A DNA stretch of 46,604 bases, from IMG/VR virus record IMGVR_UViG_2565956727_000002. One strand, 5' to 3'. The DNA is from a virus. Lineage: Duplodnaviria > Heunggongvirae > Uroviricota > Caudoviricetes. The position numbers and the translations under genes are program-made. Below are positions 26,489-39,933 of the stretch, piece after piece (the first letter of the stretch is position 1; each line of letters begins with the position of its first letter). The notes under the pieces are model-generated. The model made no database searches and was not told the origin of the DNA. It saw only the letters and a list, made by a program, of their open reading frames with translations.

Positions 26489-26695
26489 TCAGTCAACCAC
26501 CAGGGAATAATCCTTCGAATTCTTATCGTGCTTCACCAACGCTGCCTCAATTGCCCTGAATGCTTCCAGAGACACCTGATGTTCTATACATGCAATTACA
26601 ACATCCGGGTAACTCATAGAAATGGTGCTATTAAGCATATTTTTTACACGAATCAGATCCAACGAGAGTTCATCAGCAGATTGTTCTTTATTCAT
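26489..26695 (-). CDS. hypothetical small protein (68 aa)
   Basis: ORF of 68 aa in the moron region between the cos region and gnsB; no recognisable motif. Confidence 0.4.
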
Positions 26696-26980
26696 TTTGT
26701 CGCTCCATGCGTTTGCTCGTCATCTAGCGGTTAAAATATTACTTCAAATCTTACTGCATAAAAGAGGAAAAGTATGAAAGTTTGAGTACATCGACCTTAC
26801 ATACATCTGTCGGTTGCATATCCCTCCTGGATGCCAGCAAGGCTCAATTTTGTTACGCAATCAACACTATTCATCAAAAACAGGCTTAATATTTGACATA
26901 AATCATCAACAAAACACAAAGAGGTCAGACCAGATTGAAACAATAAACACGATAATGCTAACTACGCGCCATCGTATCAC

Positions 26981-27328
26981 ATGGAAGGTTTACCAATGGC
27001 TCAGGTTGCCATTTTTAAAGAAATATTCGATCAAGTGCGTAAAGATTTAAACTGTGAATTATTTTATTCTGAGCTAAAACGTCACAATGTCTCACTTTAT
27101 ATTTACTATTTAGCCACAGATAATATTCACATTGTGTTAGAAAACGACAACATAGTGTTAGTAAAAGGACTCAAAAAGGTTGTAAATGTTAAATTCTCCA
27201 GAAACAAACATCTTATAGAGACCTCCTATAATAAGTTGAAATCAAAAGAAATCACATTTCAACAATACAGGGAAAATCTTGCTAAAGCAGGAGTTTTCCG
27301 ATGGGTTACAAATATCCAGGAACACTAA
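26981..27328 (+). CDS. DUF1398-like phage protein (YdfO/YbcV-like)
   Basis: About 110 aa; C-terminal ...[19 protein letters not shown]... recalls the DUF1398 family found in this position of lambdoid prophages. Confidence 0.45.
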
Positions 27329-27557
27329 AGATATTACTATGCCTTTGATAACTCATTACTATTTACTGAAAGCATCCAGAAAACTACACAGATCTTACCA
27401 CGCTAAACCATAACGTCCGGCTTCTCTCACTCCTGAGCCGGACTGCATTGGTTTAATAAAAACCATCAACAATTGTGATTTAGATATTCGGAACCATTCA
27501 AATATAACAAAACCCCGTAAAAACGAGGTTTATGGATAAATTTTATTATTGAATACA

Positions 27558-27734
27558 TCAGATTAAATTAATCTTGACATCATAGCTTTCAAGACCCGTC
27601 ATTTTTTCCCGTGCGGTAAACTGAATACTGGTAACTTCTTTCCCGGTCTTTTTCTTAAGTTCAATAATTTTTTTTGTTATATATTCAGAAATATCTGCTT
27701 CTGCTTTTGTTTTTAAGTTTTCAATATTCATCAT
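27558..27734 (-). CDS. gnsB: GnsA/GnsB family protein
   Basis: 58-aa ORF found by manual translation (below the ORF-track cutoff): MMNIENLKTKAEADISEYITKKIIELKKKTGKEVTSIQFTAREKMTGLESYDVKINLI, closely resembling GnsB. Confidence 0.8.
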   Translation of the reverse strand: MMNIENLKTKAEADISEYITKKIIELKKKTGKEVTSIQFTAREKMTGLESYDVKINLI

Positions 27735-27902
27735 TTCCTCTTTTAGTCTGTTATGACTTTCCAGTTACACAGTAAGTCGATTATATGGTGCAAACGTGTA
27801 AAAGATAAGATGAAACATCGCAATAATCAACATACGATAGTCTAAATTTTACACAAACAGACAAAGAGAATTTTCCTGAATTATCAATACAATAGCATCA
27901 AA

Positions 27903-28133
27903 TCAACTCAAGAGCCTTATTGCTGCTTCCAGAATTTCTTCTGAAGTAACATGTCGATCCGCGGCTACATAAATGACTTTATGATCTCCGGTCAGAGATG
28001 GAAACCCTGCGGCCATTACAGTAAGGTGTGTTTTTTCGCCATTTGGATATTCACGCATGATGGTGTTAACTCCAGTCATCGCTGGCACTACCACTGCTGG
28101 TTCAGAGTTAAAAAAAACTATGATTTTTTTCAT
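27903..28133 (-). CDS. hypothetical protein (about 76 aa)
   Basis: ORF starting MKKIIVFFNSEPAVVV...; no recognisable catalytic motif. Confidence 0.4.
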   Translation of the reverse strand: MKKIIVFFNSEPAVVVPAMTGVNTIMREYPNGEKTHLTVMAAGFPSLTGDHKVIYVAADRHVTSEEILEAAIRLLS

Positions 28134-28404
28134 GATGTTACCGTAGTATGTGAGTATCCATCGAATAGATACCAAGCAAAAAAGCTCCCGAAGGAGCCTT
28201 CATTTTCACTTTTTTAAATCCAACGACAGACGGCTGGCATTTAAGTATTGTGAAATATTATCAAATGTAATCATCATTGATTTACAAAAGATACATTTTG
28301 CCCCGAAAGGATTCATGTCAGAAACATCAAAAGATGATGTTCTATACTGGGAACCATGACAACACGGGCATCTAAAGTGAATATGGTTTGTAATATTGTC
28401 TACC

Positions 28405-28617
28405 TCAAAGCGCCACTACATGAACAGCGGCAGGACCTTTAGGTCCGTTCTCAATACCAAATTCAACTTCCTGATTCTCAGTTAATGTTTTGAAATCGTT
28501 GCTCTGAATTGCTGAGAAATGGACAAACACATCTTTGCTGCCATCTTTCGGCGTGATGAAACCAAAACCTTTTTCAGGGTTAAACCATTTCACTAAACCA
28601 GTCATTTTGTTAGACAT
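28405..28617 (-). CDS. cspI: cold shock protein CspI
   Basis: 70 aa with CspA-family RNP motifs (KGFGFI, VFVHF); sequence matches CspI as I recall it. Confidence 0.95.
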
Positions 28618-28979
28618 AATTATTACCTTTTGAAGAAATTAGCCCTTGGGCAGAATGGTCCGAAAAAAAATATCAGAGAGAAAAACCAACAAGGAAATCT
28701 CAAGAGGTACAAATAATAAAATTATAACAATGACTGCTTCAGATAAATTTGTAACAAACCAGAACACCATTAACGCATGATTAACCACCCATAGCAAGGA
28801 TTACTTTTGTAAAGAAAAACACAGCAATGAAAGAATAGCTTTATTTATTAATAAAACGTGTCATTCTGATTAAGACCTTTTATCTTACCCTTAAGATTTC
28901 AGGAATTTTGGCTCATGGAAGAGTCCTTTTTATTTAAATTTTACATTCCGCGATGTAAATGTTCCGATTTAATATTACC

Positions 28980-30003
<1,024 letters not shown>

Positions 30004-34600: not shown

Positions 34601-34852
34601 TTATTCTTCTGCAAAAGCTGAAAAGCCTGCTTTTATTCCGATCTCTTTCAGTGCCTGTAATGAAGTGACAAACTCACCTTCGCGCAAGATAAATCCGTCT
34701 GTCACTCGACCATCCACAAAATTAATTAACGCAGCCCCATTCTTTCGCAAACACATAATGCGGTAATGACTAACAAGATTTCCATTTTCAACGCACACAG
34801 CATAGAGGCCATCTTCACAAAAAATTTTACGCAGTTCTTCGATGTTCATCAT
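34601..34852 (-). CDS. hypothetical protein (83 aa), possibly Rem-like
   Basis: 83-aa ORF upstream of the hok locus, same size and position as rem in the K-12 Qin prophage; sequence identity not verified. Confidence 0.4.
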   Translation of the reverse strand: MMNIEELRKIFCEDGLYAVCVENGNLVSHYRIMCLRKNGAALINFVDGRVTDGFILREGEFVTSLQALKEIGIKAGFSAFAEE

Positions 34853-34964
34853 CAGAATCCTTCCGGATAATTAGCTCTCCCCTTTAAGGGACCATCCCTC
34901 TTATCCCTGCGCGCTACTTAAGTATTTTTGATTCTATTCCGGCACCGTCCAGAACTTCAAACGC

Positions 34965-34999
34965 GTTGAAAATAAAAACAAAAACCCGCCGAAGCGGGT
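34965..34999 (-). terminator. rho-independent terminator downstream of hok
   Basis: hairpin cccgc-cgaa-gcggg followed on the minus strand by TTTTTGTTTTTATTTT. Confidence 0.6.
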
Positions 35000-35068
35000 T
35001 AAGTGCGGGTGCGTTGAGGATGCCTGACACATCAGAGGTGGCGAGGGATTTCTCCCTCGCCGGGTCTC

Positions 35069-35224
35069 TTACTCCTCAGGTTCGTAAGCTGTGAAGACAG
35101 CGACCTCCGTCTGGCCGGTTCGGATTCGTACCTCGCAGAGGTCTTTCCTCGTTACCAGTGCCGTCACTATGACGGTTAAACAGATGACGATCAGGGCGAT
35201 TAACATCGCCTTTTGCTGCTTCAT
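35069..35224 (-). CDS. hokD: Hok-family membrane toxin (HokD/RelF)
   Basis: 51 aa MKQQKAMLIALIVICLTVIVTALVTRKDLCEVRIRTGQTEVAVFTAYEPEE, a canonical Hok toxin. Confidence 0.9.
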   Translation of the reverse strand: MKQQKAMLIALIVICLTVIVTALVTRKDLCEVRIRTGQTEVAVFTAYEPEE

Positions 35225-35281
35225 AGCCTGCTTCTCCTTGCCTTCCGGCACGTAAGAGGCTAACCTACATGTGTCTAGCAT
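35069..35281 (-). CDS. mokD: Mok-like in-frame N-terminally extended reading frame for hok translation control
   Basis: 70-aa ORF including the hok frame with a 19-aa N-terminal extension, as for mokC/hokC. Confidence 0.5.
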   Translation of the reverse strand: MLDTCRLASYVPEGKEKQAMKQQKAMLIALIVICLTVIVTALVTRKDLCEVRIRTGQTEVAVFTAYEPEE

Positions 35282-35420
35282 GAAATTGGCCTCAGATTAA
35301 TGTTAAGCGTCTTGCAGGACGCGTAATGTTAACTGGGGCTTTTCTCTATCTGCCTTTGGTGTTCATGCCCGAGGCAGATAGCCTCAAGCACCCGCAGCCA
35401 TTCTACTTAACTACCTTTAC
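35282..35420. promoter_or_regulatory. hok mRNA leader / putative Sok-like antisense RNA region
   Basis: Non-coding region upstream of mok/hok with an extended inverted repeat (tatctgcc...ggcagata); by analogy with hok/sok loci. Confidence 0.35.
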
Positions 35421-35876
35421 CTCGCCAATATGAAATCAGTCAGAAAGGCGATCCATAAGAACAATAGCAAGACAATAAATCGCCATTACAGCCGTAATAG
35501 CCAGCGCACATTTGAGAACCAGCACCACAACCTCCTGTATTGGACGTACACCAGTCCTGATAAATATGAGGCTGTCTCGTCCGTGATTCAATACAACTAT
35601 TGGGTATGGTTTCTCTGATTTTTCTGTGGAAATGGAGCTCAACCACTAGTCACCACCAGCACTTCTTTTAATACGCAAAGTCCGACGCAAGCCAACAGGT
35701 TCAATTTCATATATATGAATTTTAAGCAGTATTCACCTACACGATTATTAGCAATTTCCTGAATATATGATGGAGTGTCTTGACGATTTTAGACCAGAAA
35801 CGCCCTCCACGTATTTCTGAGCGTACGCAACATATGTTATGGCAAATGCGAGCATATGGTAGAGTCAAATAAGTAA

Positions 35877-35898
35877 GAGCCACCCGCAGGTGGCTCTT
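35877..35898 (-). terminator. putative terminator just downstream of the AIPR-like gene
   Basis: hairpin agagccacc-cgca-ggtggctct 5 nt after the stop codon, followed by T-rich sequence. Confidence 0.45.
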
Positions 35899-35902
35899 AC
35901 TT

Positions 35903-37678
35903 TTACTCTTGCAATTCGATGATCTGCTCTTTACCTAGTAGATGATTAATAATATTTAATACTTTTTCTCTGTTCTGGAAGAATCTTGCTATATAACTAT
36001 TGGGGAAGACTTCCTGTATGTGATTATAAGTATCAGAAGCCAGCTCTATACATTCCTCCAGTGAAACGTTTCGGCTATAAGAGAAGATGTGATTCTCCAC
36101 AGAGGAAACTTCTATTTTATTCATGAGTATGGATATTAAAACATAATTTCCATGAATCATTATTTGATGAATCTGCTTCTGATTTTCCATATCTACTGAT
36201 AGTAGTTTAACTATACTTTCTTGCAATATATCATTTGCTAATCTATAAGCATTTACTTTATTTATTATATCCAAACCGGTAGGACCATTTTCAGCTGGGA
36301 ATACTTTTTCATAAAGACCTCCCCAGCTTTCAAAAAAACGTCCTCTATTTAGTTTTAAGGAAGATATCAATGTTTCATCTTTAGAGGCACACACTAATGC
36401 GTTTAAAGCATCATCAATATCAATGGTATTACCACCTGTCTGGCTGGAGTCTTCTTGCCTGAGTAGTTTGTAGCTATATCCGCCAATAAAGTTTATTTCT
36501 CTTTGTATTCTTTGTTGCTCGGGCCTCTGTGATGAGAAATCTCTTCCAGTAACCCTGTTTTGTGTATTGTTGAATTTAGTGACAGAGGTTAAAAAATCTT
36601 CTTTTGCTGCACTGATAAATCTAATGCTCACCTTGATTAGATCTTTTTTTTCTTCGGGTAAAGAGTTGAACACTTCACCAATAGTGCTTACAGTTTGAGC
36701 TCCATTTATTATACTCAGACTTTTAAAACTAAATAGCCCGTACTTCCTGCTTGTACTTAAGTTGATCATGCTTTCTTCTACATCACTATATACAGCAGTT
36801 ATCCCATTGTTATAGTACCAAAAATTCTCCGGCTTTTCACTTAATGTTTTCTTTATCCCAGAGTTTATGGATGAATTACCGAGGACACTTCTTATATTTT
36901 TCTCGAACAGAGAGTACTTGTACTTTTCCCACCAGTCGTATAGGATCCTTGCGGATATTGTTCCGTATATTGCTTTATAAGGTTCTGCTATCTCTCCATA
37001 ACTTTCAAGGTGAACATTGCTAACATTTATAGATTTTGATCGATCATTAGAAAGACCATCCATTATCACTTGTATACCTGCCGGCTCGAATAGCACTGAA
37101 TACTCATCTCTATTCTCTATATCTTTAAATAATAGAGACCGATTCTGAACCTTTTCCCAAAACTCTATGTCTGATTTTACTTCCTCGCTTGGCTCATGAA
37201 CCCCTGTATATATAAATACACATATACATTTATATGTAAATCCTGAGATTGCTTCAATTATGGAGTCTTTGTTTCTTAAAAACCTTTCGTTAAATGTTGT
37301 AAAGTCGCTGGCTATTACTTTTGCGCATGCGTCTTTGAATCTTCCGAATTCTCTTGTGGTTATAGAACCGTCGCCATTTTTAATATATTTTGACTGAACT
37401 ATTACTATCTTTCTCGAATTTTTATTAACATAAACTGCATCTATCCCGCCATCATCTTTTCCATCGCAGACAGCATTAGCAGCTAACTCAGGGTCTGGTT
37501 CATCACCATACAAGCTGATTGCATGCGCAGCTACACAGCGTGTAATTAGAGTTTCTTTCCTATGCTCTCCTACGGAATTAATATCTTTCATATCAATAAA
37601 AGTTCCGTATATAGACTCTAATTGATTAGTTATGCGTACTAAACCTGCTGTTTGCGTGGCTTTGTCGTACTGGGACAT
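35903..37678 (-). CDS. putative abortive-infection / anti-phage defence protein, AIPR-like, with N-terminal PD-(D/E)xK-like nuclease motif
   Basis: 591 aa in a markedly AT-rich segment; N-terminal DGGIDAVYV...IVIVQSKY nuclease-like motif; central NGAQT motif characteristic of AIPR proteins; own terminator and about 290 bp upstream non-coding region. Confidence 0.6.
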   Translation of the reverse strand: MSQYDKATQTAGLVRITNQLESIYGTFIDMKDINSVGEHRKETLITRCVAAHAISLYGDEPDPELAANAVCDGKDDGGIDAVYVNKNSRKIVIVQSKYIKNGDGSITTREFGRFKDACAKVIASDFTTFNERFLRNKDSIIEAISGFTYKCICVFIYTGVHEPSEEVKSDIEFWEKVQNRSLLFKDIENRDEYSVLFEPAGIQVIMDGLSNDRSKSINVSNVHLESYGEIAEPYKAIYGTISARILYDWWEKYKYSLFEKNIRSVLGNSSINSGIKKTLSEKPENFWYYNNGITAVYSDVEESMINLSTSRKYGLFSFKSLSIINGAQTVSTIGEVFNSLPEEKKDLIKVSIRFISAAKEDFLTSVTKFNNTQNRVTGRDFSSQRPEQQRIQREINFIGGYSYKLLRQEDSSQTGGNTIDIDDALNALVCASKDETLISSLKLNRGRFFESWGGLYEKVFPAENGPTGLDIINKVNAYRLANDILQESIVKLLSVDMENQKQIHQIMIHGNYVLISILMNKIEVSSVENHIFSYSRNVSLEECIELASDTYNHIQEVFPNSYIARFFQNREKVLNIINHLLGKEQIIELQE

Positions 37679-37969
37679 CCTTTGCGCTCCTGAACATGTA
37701 ACAAAATATGATTCGCATTATAAGATTTTTTTAATGTTTAGCCGAAGAGTTTTTTGCATGAGTTATGACATAAGTTTAGTTCGTAGTTCTGCGATATAGT
37801 TTTCTCCTGAAAACAAAAAACATCTGGGGCATGAGGTGAGCTCCGAAAGTTGGACATCTCAACGATTATGTCAAGAGCGTCTACTGGGACGTGGTCTGTG
37901 TAAACGGTCACTCCTAGTACAAAGCAGACAACAATGCCAGTTTTAATCTAATCCTATACAACAGAAATG

Positions 37970-38425
37970 TCATTTCACATTTGAACTAATGCACTTTAAT
38001 ATCGTTACTTCAAAATGCTGAACATTTCCCTGATAAAACGCCAGTATGCGTTGCATCACTTCGCTCTTCCGGCACTCGCGACAGATTATGTTTAGACGAC
38101 TGTCGTAGCGACGTATTTCTCCGTCAGGTAATGACCAGATAAGGTCCGGATCAACCACAGCAGGTTTCTTCACCTTTGCCCTCGAGAGTTTTTTGCGGGC
38201 GTTTTGCCAGTCCTTACGCGCCTGTTCAGACGGGAATAACCCGTAACCAGAGCTGTATACATCGCCACTGGCAACCAGCTCTCTGGCCAGAACGCTCATC
38301 AGATATCTTGTTGCCCCAGTTTTAGTTTCCAGTTGTCGTAACGTCTCGCGCCCACTCTGGCGTACGAGTTCCACCACCTGCCCTTTAATTTTTTCCCGCT
38401 CTTCTTGTGTAAAAACTTTTGCCAC
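37970..38425 (-). CDS. hypothetical protein (151 aa)
   Basis: ORF between the replication initiator and the AIPR-like gene; basic, CxxC pair (CRECRK); function unknown. Confidence 0.45.
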   Translation of the reverse strand: MAKVFTQEEREKIKGQVVELVRQSGRETLRQLETKTGATRYLMSVLARELVASGDVYSSGYGLFPSEQARKDWQNARKKLSRAKVKKPAVVDPDLIWSLPDGEIRRYDSRLNIICRECRKSEVMQRILAFYQGNVQHFEVTILKCISSNVK

Positions 38426-38465
38426 AAGTCCTCCTGAACATTACTTTATGCCCTAAAATCAACAC

Positions 38466-39485
38466 TTATCCCCTGAAACCAGGCGGAATTTCTGTATCCG
38501 GTTCAGAAATATGATTCACACAACGCTGTACAGGTGAACGTCCCAGGCGGATGACCAGTTCGTCCCATTTTTCGCGGAGTTTTGACGGGCTCATGATGTT
38601 TTTTACCCAGAATTGATCTCGCTGTACCCGACCAAACATTTCGCAAATTTGTCTGTGGCTTCTGCCATCCAGCATCCGCATTGTGCGCACGTCATTGGCC
38701 CAGGCTGTCCAGTTAGGCTCTTTTGGTCGCATGATCTCTCCATCGTCGCTGGCAGCCTGTTCGTAAAGGTTCACGATCCGCCCCCAAATCCACTGCGCAC
38801 ACGCCAAATCCTCCCTGCTACCCCACTGGCGTTTTTTCGCACTAAACACAACCGCGTCGGGGTTCCGGGTTAAAAAATCCTGTTCAGCGGTCTGCGGGTC
38901 CGGTTGCGAAGCTTCCGGACGAAAAGTGTTTTTATTCTCTGTAGTAATCTCTGTTGTATTCTCTGTAAGATCATCAGGCCATTTTGACCCGATGACATTG
39001 GGTCGTTTTGAACCAATGGAGCGTTTCGTTTTGACCTCTTCCATCGTGTCATTTTGACCTGATGGAGCGGCGCATTTTAAACCGATGGATTCGCTCAATT
39101 TGCCACCATCTAAAAGCTCGCTCCCGTAGTTGATCGTGTAGAAATTGGTCATATCGCGCTTTGATTTATTGAGCTTTTCACAACGCAAAAGCCCCAGCGT
39201 TTTCAGACTTGCAAACGCGCGCTTTAACGTTGACTCTGACCAGAATGGGAACTGTTCCAGCCATTGTTCCGTTGTGTTGTAAATCCAGCGAACACCATCA
39301 CATTCCATGCCGGAATTGGTATCTCTCAACCAGTAATGCAACTGCTGCAACACAATGGCTTCATTTAAGCCAATCTTCATCGCAAGCTGTGTGTTTATAA
39401 CCAGTGGGCGTTCAGCAAAAAGAAGGCTCATAATTCCATCCAGCTTTTTGTTGGTATTGCTGTCGATACGCAAGTTTGAAAGCAA
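38466..39485 (-). CDS. putative phage replication initiation protein (O-like / YdaU-like)
   Basis: 339 aa; N-terminal winged-helix-like region, acidic linker and conserved C-terminal domain; position downstream of the cro/cII-equivalent genes. Confidence 0.55.
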   Translation of the reverse strand: MLSNLRIDSNTNKKLDGIMSLLFAERPLVINTQLAMKIGLNEAIVLQQLHYWLRDTNSGMECDGVRWIYNTTEQWLEQFPFWSESTLKRAFASLKTLGLLRCEKLNKSKRDMTNFYTINYGSELLDGGKLSESIGLKCAAPSGQNDTMEEVKTKRSIGSKRPNVIGSKWPDDLTENTTEITTENKNTFRPEASQPDPQTAEQDFLTRNPDAVVFSAKKRQWGSREDLACAQWIWGRIVNLYEQAASDDGEIMRPKEPNWTAWANDVRTMRMLDGRSHRQICEMFGRVQRDQFWVKNIMSPSKLREKWDELVIRLGRSPVQRCVNHISEPDTEIPPGFRG

Positions 39486-39933
39486 TTGCTTTTTCTATAA
39501 GTTCGTCAGTTTCACGATCCACTACGGCAGGATCAGCAAAAAGCAGTCCGGACTCCACCACATCGCCATATTCTTTGTTTAACCCGGCGATCATGTACGT
39601 GATGCTTTTTCCGTCACTAATTTCACGATACAACCTGAAATCATTAATCCGAATAGCCTCCATAATTGCAGGCACTAGCGCCGTGAACTTTTCACGCTTA
39701 TCCCTGGTGTCGATAACCTTCCAGCGTTCGAATATCTTCACTCGATTAACGCCAAGTGCTCGCTGATCAACCGCGCCACCTTCATCTGTGACACGCTGAA
39801 CATCGATGTTCGGGCGCTCTTTCAAAGCCCAGAATGCTTCAGTGATTAATATCGTCGCCTGCTCCTGTGTCATTCCTGGTCGACATATCCAGGCATCCAG
39901 AGCCTCACGAGCCTGTTCAGGAGTGATTTTCAT
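39412..39933 (-). CDS. YdaT-like protein (cII-position regulator / putative toxin family)
   Basis: 173 aa immediately after the cro-like dicC gene; architecture and the ...FERWKVIDTRDKREKFTALVPAIMEAI... segment recall Rac YdaT. Confidence 0.55.
   Translation of the reverse strand: MKITPEQAREALDAWICRPGMTQEQATILITEAFWALKERPNIDVQRVTDEGGAVDQRALGVNRVKIFERWKVIDTRDKREKFTALVPAIMEAIRINDFRLYREISDGKSITYMIAGLNKEYGDVVESGLLFADPAVVDRETDELIEKAIAFKLAYRQQYQQKAGWNYEPSFC

Follow-up and report, generated by a model that had tools for sequence, protein, structure and literature searches.

What does a single AT-rich gene do in the middle of a lambdoid prophage? We addressed this question in the window, i.e., the whole stretch of 46,604 nucleotides (nt) held as IMG/VR virus record IMGVR_UViG_2565956727_000002 (Caudoviricetes), in which an intact-looking Qin-like lambdoid prophage adjoins rspAB/ynfA. 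The gene encodes a 591-amino-acid (aa) protein of the AIPR/AbiU1 family, and an earlier note made from the sequence alone had proposed it as an abortive-infection nuclease. We consider it probable that the segment around it (35697-37918) is a horizontally acquired single-gene defense cassette carrying an AbiU1/AIPR nuclease, which occupies a slot exchanged by recombination and acts by the mechanism proposed below. Judged from its sequence and relatives, the encoded AIPR/AbiU protein is very probably a stand-alone anti-phage nuclease. The gene and its parts were placed as follows.

35903..37678, minus strand: gene for the AIPR/AbiU1-family protein, 591 aa (open reading frame (ORF), Pfam, PADLOC, PHROG, and RefSeq annotation)
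37034..37561, minus strand: PD-(D/E)xK nuclease domain, approximately residues 40-215 (predicted fold)
37388..37465, minus strand: catalytic motif D72-GKD-D76-G-G78-I-D80 ... Q95-S-K97 (invariance in homologs, sequence)
36440..36907, minus strand: AIPR core, residues 258-413, ParB/Srx-like fold (predicted fold, Pfam)
36692..36706, minus strand: NGAQT motif, residues 325-329 (conservation, structure model)
35906..36418, minus strand: C-terminal, mostly helical domain, residues 421-591 (model with a predicted local distance difference test score (pLDDT) of about 85-95)

To which family does the protein belong? The ORF was found exactly where the earlier note had placed it, with an ATG start and a TAA stop, and a ribosome binding site (RBS), AGGAG, lies at 37687-37691, 8 nt upstream of the ATG. 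Pfam AIPR (PF10592) matched residues 258-413 with 115.7 bits against a gathering cut-off of 25 (E = 4.5e-33), confirming the proposed family; the alignment covered the first half of the profile only (positions 1-158 of 308). The same Pfam family was matched by all 38 homologs that we aligned. A defense-database search, which had also been suggested, returned PADLOC AbiU (PDLC02357; E = 6.9e-24) over residues 66-393 and profile positions 44-366 of 537 (~60%), and PHROG 1841 ("Abi alpha-like abortive infection mechanism") matched over its full length (E = 7e-103). The protein is identical to RefSeq WP_000084874.1, annotated "AIPR family protein." With the family catalogued in Pfam (AIPR) and PADLOC (AbiU) and the exact protein in RefSeq, its description as an uncharacterized anti-phage system was overstated.

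A word-indexed homolog search gave 1,146 proteins, nearly all of ~590 aa and with AIPR as their sole Pfam domain; their sources were Enterobacterales, Pseudomonas, Shewanella, Aeromonas, and cyanobacteria. An exhaustive search of 1.84 billion cluster representatives yielded 4,876 relatives at E <= 1e-3, of which 395 reached E <= 1e-30; these relatives are 50%-identity clusters, and most were 550-590 aa long and matched over their full length. Thus sampled, AIPR/AbiU is a large family with a fixed architecture.

The nuclease was sought at the N-terminus, where the earlier note had read a PD-(D/E)xK motif. The motif DGKDDGGIDAVYV...IVIVQSK was verified in the sequence at residues 72-97. Conservation was assessed in two sets, the alignment of 38 homologs and 101 representatives at 25-40% identity to the query, and D72, D76, G78, D80, Q95, and K97 were invariant in both. 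In the structure model, D80 opens strand 81-85 and Q95-S-K97 closes strand 90-97; that is, the residues sit where the motif requires them on an Mrr-like predicted fold. The core fold of PD-(D/E)xK enzymes, alpha-beta-beta-beta-alpha-beta, was present in the predicted structure, as was the conserved (D/E/Q)xK triad with its acidic residue (D80, Q95-S-K97), and the nearest structural relatives included MspJI and AspBHI. A separate model of residues 236-591 (pLDDT 82) gave no nuclease structural matches; therefore, the nuclease fold lies within residues 1-235. On these models, the N-terminal domain is an Mrr/FokI/MspJI-type PD-(D/E)xK endonuclease with D80 and Q95-x-K97 as predicted catalytic residues. 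Unlike MspJI, AspBHI, Mrr, and the FokI cleavage domain, it is partnered by the AIPR core, and the window protein has no SRA-like or other recognized DNA-recognition domain.

The central NGAQT motif had been taken as the AIPR signature. It was verified as IINGAQT at residues 323-329, within the AIPR core, and proved to be conserved in both sets, with N325, G326, and Q328 invariant and A327 and T329 at least 90% conserved. The conserved core motifs are N261-x-R263, N290-N-G292, N325-G-x-Q328, and N371-x-Q-N374; N290, N291, G292, N325, G326, Q328, N371, Q373, and N374 were invariant in the 101 representatives. The structure model places NGAQT at a strand-to-helix junction (strand 322-325, helix 327-339). 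The structural matches of the core, with their scores, were as follows.

PadC (ParB-like), 6.7
BrxU (GmrSD-family, DUF262), 6.6
Sulfiredoxin, 5.9
pNOB8 ParB-N, 5.7
KorB, 5.6
SspE (DUF262), 5.4
Dnd-associated DUF262 protein, 5.0

The scores, although modest, are consistent, and the modeled core has a ParB/Srx fold. They agree with the placement of "AbiU1/AIPR/COG1479" by Makarova et al. 2013 as a ParB-superfamily domain that is often fused to other nucleases (PMC3632139), and it is the predicted fold only that links the core to ParB. The DGQQR motif of DUF262 proteins has been linked to nucleotide hydrolysis in BrxU (PMC8565348). In the model, NGAQT may correspond in place to DGQQR, with the glycine and the second glutamine kept and the arginine replaced by threonine. 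No arginine occurs in N325-G-A-Q-T329, and the nucleotide-phosphate motif DGQQR/GxxR was thus not found there. Moreover, hhalign detected no similarity between the AIPR core profile and the DUF262 cargo protein of strain MB06171. DUF262 membership was rejected because the arginine is missing and no sequence-level match was obtained. GmrSD, BrxU, and SspE (DUF262 + DUF1524) also differ in that their domain order is reversed relative to the window protein, whose nuclease is N-terminal, and in that their nuclease is HNH/DUF1524 in place of PD-(D/E)xK.

For the C-terminal domain (~170 residues), structural comparison gave no convincing match in the PDB. H509 was conserved in the closer homolog set. 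AIPR proteins have been said to carry a HEPN domain (PMC3506569); for the window protein this assignment was rejected, as the arginine of R-x4-6-H is absent and there was no structural support. We also observed that distant AIPR homologs show a HEPN-like R-x5/6-H pattern (RKRHLIITH, RKYGLMIH) before a conserved HGN, around residue 509, and that the arginine has been lost in the E. coli clade (KQIHQIMIH; approximately 36152-36178 of the window).

We then compared the protein with the named systems that share its core. Like lactococcal AbiU1, it is the product of a single gene on mobile DNA, and the PADLOC AbiU model spans its nuclease domain and AIPR core. The two are also similar in length (~590 aa). 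The window copy differs in being Gram-negative and prophage-borne, in having no AbiU2-like neighbor, and in its C-terminal domain, which we regard as divergent because only part of the PADLOC and Pfam profiles was matched. AbiU-1 was put independently in the PD-(D/E)XK superfamily by a 2026 structural paper on Upx (PMC13099982), which cites, second-hand, an effect of AbiU1 on phage transcription. No published mechanism for the AbiU/AIPR family was found in the literature. MzaE of the five-gene MZA system has the AIPR core in common with our protein (NCBIfam E = 8e-16; PADLOC MzaE E = 7e-15), but the match is limited to the core, and identity with MzaE was rejected: the NCBIfam MzaE score was 57.6 bits, whereas the equivalog cut-off is 1050, and MzaA-D are absent from the neighborhood, where DUF977 and hokD are found.

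Is the gene part of the prophage or cargo? The cassette, its own signals, and its conserved flanks were delimited as follows.

35697..37918, no strand assigned: single-gene cargo cassette, 2,222 nt, 36.1% GC (junction comparison)
37679..37969, minus strand: 291-nt leader with candidate promoter and RBS (sequence)
35871..35902, minus strand: perfect 14-bp hairpin directly after the stop codon (hairpin scan, folding energy, sequence)
35069..35428, minus strand: left conserved flank, a complete hokD/sok locus with a promoter-like site (Rfam, annotation)
37970..38425, minus strand: right conserved flank, the DUF977 (LygF) gene downstream of replication gene O (Pfam, annotation)

The slot lies between the replication genes (O, DUF977) and hok/sok-rem-ydfU-Q. 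Six sister loci were set against the window, namely those of phages Evi and mEp460 and of four E. coli prophages with other cargo. Left homology ended at 35696 in all six comparisons, and right homology ended at 37919 in four of them and at 37903 and 38000 in the other two. Neither terminal repeats nor att-like sites were found at the cassette ends. Homologous recombination within the flanks is the simpler account of how cassettes are exchanged. Among 5,426 complete E. coli genomes, the flanks of the 2.7-kb stretch 35400-38100 were present in 3,448, both flanks fell in one matched stretch in 618 (joined-flank search), and the full stretch was present in 38, including E24377A. The other cargo found in the slot, with its PADLOC match, is given below.

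AAA ATPase, 798 aa: PDC-S06 (E = 0)
FRG-domain protein, opposite strand: PDC-S15
DUF262 protein: NsnA / PD-T4-2_A
Ec67-type retron reverse transcriptase (RT): RT-Toprim I-C
DUF4209 / DUF7380 protein, opposite strand, in ATCC 25922: PDC-S39
PD-T7-1 in phage mEp460: PD-T7-1
PD-T7-1-like protein: PD-T7-1
Phage Evi: an acetyltransferase with no PADLOC match and a helix-turn-helix (HTH) regulator (HTH_VI/RmrA-type models)

PADLOC thus matched seven of the nine other cargo proteins scanned, and the slot holds at least eight other cargo types, of which PDC-S06, PDC-S15, and PDC-S39 are only candidate systems in PADLOC. The commonest cargo in the 60 best-matching genomes was DUF4209/PDC-S39. The cargo can face either way, which implies that a promoter comes with each cassette. 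The sharp shared junctions and the other defense genes in the same slot of sister prophages agree with the earlier suggestion of a defense hotspot, and on this genome comparison the hok/sok-DUF977 slot of Qin-like prophages is a genuine one. The hotspots of PMC9122126 likewise have conserved flanks around a slot of mutually replacing, unrelated defense genes, and AIPR-domain cargo is listed there; unlike them, the present slot lies in a Qin-like lambdoid prophage between DUF977/O and hok/sok. We found no description of this slot in the literature. In a recent survey, hok genes were not generally enriched near defense systems (bioRxiv 10.1101/2025.08.07.668861).

The base composition sets the cassette apart. 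Its coding sequence (CDS) is 35.3% GC, with 30.6% at third codon positions (GC3), compared with 49.6% GC in the left flank, 46.4% in the right flank, 48.2% in the whole window, and a GC3 of 48-52% in the neighboring genes. Sliding-window GC was 0.33-0.38 from ~35600 to 38000 and 0.45-0.54 on either side, and the cassette lies ~2 standard deviations under the mean of same-size (2.2-kb) windows. The AT-rich segment and the separate upstream non-coding region described earlier were thus both recovered. Only one block of the window is more AT-rich than the cassette, namely the gnsB/cspI block (~26550-29100), at 34.6% GC. The leader contains a perfect TATAAT (37717-37722) and a weak -35 element, TCGGCT (37740-37745), with three of six matches, and this site is a candidate promoter; DNA homology to the Cronobacter and L015 copies starts at 37706/37707, near the predicted transcript start.

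A hairpin terminator had been described after the stop codon. A strong hairpin is indeed there, with a perfect 14-bp stem, a 4-nt loop, and a folding energy of about -30 kcal/mol; it begins directly after the TAA, and its G+C-rich core begins 6 nt after the TAA. However, the gene-strand tail is ATTTGAC, and the terminator scan called the hairpin on the opposite strand only. We did not classify it as a canonical intrinsic terminator because only three T follow on the gene strand. Two small ORFs, 37738..37911 and 35737..35883, were rejected as genes, as they had no family matches and their regions are absent from the Cronobacter and L015 copies. An Rfam scan of 34800-38200 returned only the sok/hok element and nothing within the cassette.

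The earlier note had also placed the gene where K-12 Qin carries relBE, which is approximately right. K-12 Qin matches the window at 99% identity as far as 35238, a point 14 nt upstream of the hokD start, diverges over 35239-39653, and matches again from 39654 onward. In K-12, the hok 5' region, the cargo, DUF977, O, and part of ydaT have all given way to one relE-relB-ydfV-flxA-ydfW block. A clean exchange of relBE for AIPR was therefore rejected, as the breakpoints differ. The K-12 hokD is without the native 5' leader and promoter region of the window prophage, the homology ending at 35238 inside hok/sok.

Where else does the gene occur, and does it travel with partners? The E. coli FREC5 genome is 100% identical to the window over the queried stretch 35400-38100, and the AIPR gene is annotated there. 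In the index of the assembly collection, 1,836 blocks contain the identical protein, and the same neighbors (DUF977, AIPR, hok, rem) were present in all eight places read. Homologs with 85-87% protein identity occur in small integrase islets in Cronobacter and a metagenomic contig, where DNA similarity is limited to the CDS and 28 nt of leader. A 38%-identical homolog lies in an unrelated Cronobacter lambdoid prophage (L022/L023, 4001-5767), in the order replication gene, AIPR, and then NinB, RusA, and Q; from such gene orders, the family seems to have settled repeatedly in the post-replication slot. Further homologs lie in unrelated chromosomal neighborhoods. No neighbor was common to the seven contexts compared, which included E. 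coli prophages, two integrase islets, Pectobacterium, Pseudomonas, and Dickeya; therefore, the gene works alone or with host factors.

The prophage around the cassette carries terminase, lysis, Q, replication, dicA/dicC, exonuclease, excisionase, and integrase genes, together with at least two pseudogenes, DUF1398 and ydfB. The AT-rich block at ~26550-29100 (GC ~0.35) is the gnsB, ynfN, ynfR, ynfQ, cspI moron region, and the DUF1398 pseudogene, with an internal stop, lies inside it. The right-flank gene (37970..38425) matched Pfam DUF977 with E = 4e-29. In the left flank, Rfam sok (RF01794) scored 117 bits at 35219-35393, and a promoter-like TTGGCG-17-TAGAAT lies at 35428-35400 in the hok locus. 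Just downstream of hokD, a weak Rfam isrK match (34979-35060, minus strand; 25.6 bits, with the gathering score at 50) probably reflects the hok 3' stem-loop or a terminator rather than a small RNA. Between the cargo slot and the hok promoter we noted a 29-codon ORF, (M)LVLKCALAITAVMAIYCLAIVLMDRLSD, at 35436-35525 on the minus strand, whose GTG start follows a perfect AGGAGG Shine-Dalgarno sequence (35531-35536) by 5 nt. It encodes a single hydrophobic helix and is kept in six of six sister loci and phages with conservative or synonymous changes only; it had no Pfam or NCBIfam match and no annotation by the Prokaryotic Genome Annotation Pipeline (PGAP). This ORF may encode a small membrane peptide or be a type-I-toxin-like gene. 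An IS3-family insertion element lies beside or within the AIPR cassette region of some strains (NZ_CM129860.1; NC_009801.1, i.e., E24377A), and the annotation shows AIPR, an IS3 transposase, and DUF977 within one matched stretch.

How might the cassette protect its host? We propose that the gene's own promoter would drive its transcription in the lysogen; the either-way orientation of cargo in sister prophages and the perfect -10 element upstream of the AIPR gene support such independent expression. The ParB-like core and the C-terminal domain would act as a sensor or switch that binds DNA, a nucleotide, or a phage product, and would license the N-terminal nuclease to cut DNA during infection by another phage. 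The cutting would block phage transcription and replication, possibly costing the cell, and the lysogen population and the prophage would thereby be protected. Such an outcome would resemble the transcriptional effect of AbiU1 cited second-hand in PMC13099982. The occurrence of the protein in so many blocks of the assembly collection (1,836) and of the family in 4,876 clusters argues for selection.

Several results weigh against this proposal. The literature yielded no phenotype or biochemistry for any E. coli or other Gram-negative AIPR protein, and the sole experimental anchor is Lactococcus AbiU1, known second-hand through PMC13099982. Profile searches with Mrr_cat and Mrr_cat_2 did not match the window protein (Mrr_cat_2 was sub-threshold in 6 of 38 homologs, with a best E of 0.062), and the profile of the 38-sequence alignment matched no PDB sequence at E <= 10. 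No Pfam match to DUF262 was obtained at the sequence level. The consensus promoter scan did not call the TATAAT site of the leader; that is, the promoter is weak by consensus. The hairpin is plausible as a terminator but non-canonical, having no U-tract on the gene strand.

The main rival is direct modification-dependent restriction. The protein would then be a type IV-like restriction enzyme, a domain-swapped analog of GmrSD, BrxU, or SspE, rather than an abortive infection factor; its ParB-like core would read modified phage DNA, and the cell would be unharmed. The closest structural relatives of both domains act in this manner. MspJI and AspBHI, which are modification-dependent, have a D...QxK site on an Mrr-like fold, and in other strains this prophage slot contains a DUF262 protein. 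BrxU and SspE are DUF262 proteins that sense modified DNA (BrxU mechanism, PMC8565348). Against this, the window protein showed neither a sequence-level DUF262 match nor the hydrolysis-motif arginine (NGAQT in place of DGQQR), and no SRA-like or other modified-base-binding domain was detected. The phages hit by lactococcal AbiU1, moreover, are not known to carry hypermodified DNA. The effect reported for AbiU1 is on phage transcription, according to the second-hand citation in PMC13099982. We consider the modification-dependent reading rather unlikely.

Could the gene instead serve the phage's own cycle, by assisting replication or recombination, by acting as a nuclease in host takeover, or by binding DNA as a DndB-like regulator? 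It follows the replication genes immediately and shares the strand of the early-right operon, its 38% homolog occupies the equivalent post-replication slot in the unrelated Cronobacter prophage, and the AIPR core is related to DndB, which has a regulatory function (PMC3632139). However, unrelated genes in either orientation fill the slot in near-identical prophages; therefore, the slot content is not needed for the phage cycle. Most of the alternative cargo matches defense models, close homologs lie outside prophages in small integrase islets and chromosomal sites, and the invariant nuclease residues argue against a purely regulatory role. An own-cycle function is thus improbable. That the gene is an inert passenger or a decaying gene in a degenerating prophage is more improbable still: K-12 Qin is cryptic, the window prophage has its two or more pseudogenes, and IS3 elements adjoin the gene in some strains, but the 591-aa frame is intact with all family-invariant residues, the identical protein is widespread in the assembly collection, and the prophage retains terminase, integrase, lysis, and replication genes.

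What does the defense-cassette reading mean for the family? The gene is already annotated and found by standard defense finders, and it adds little to the catalogue. Somewhat tentatively, we suggest as a real possibility that AIPR/AbiU proteins are distinct, widespread single-chain immune nucleases, in which a degenerate ParB/Srx module, its canonical arginine lost, is the sensor or switch of an Mrr/FokI-type endonuclease, and that the slot is an undescribed lambdoid hotspot. If so, AIPR/AbiU would be the counterpart of GmrSD, BrxU, and SspE with the domain order inverted and the nuclease swapped, the prophage copy in E. coli would offer a tractable system in which to study the mechanism of the family, and the hok/sok-DUF977 slot would be a new lambdoid defense hotspot with at least eight exchangeable cargo types. 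The E. coli copy is a convenient entry point, being a single gene with its own leader and with D80, K97, N325, and Q328 as mutational targets. The slot, with its sharp junctions and its presence in at least 618 of 5,426 complete E. coli genomes, could be mined for single-gene defense candidates, including PDC-S06, S15, and S39.

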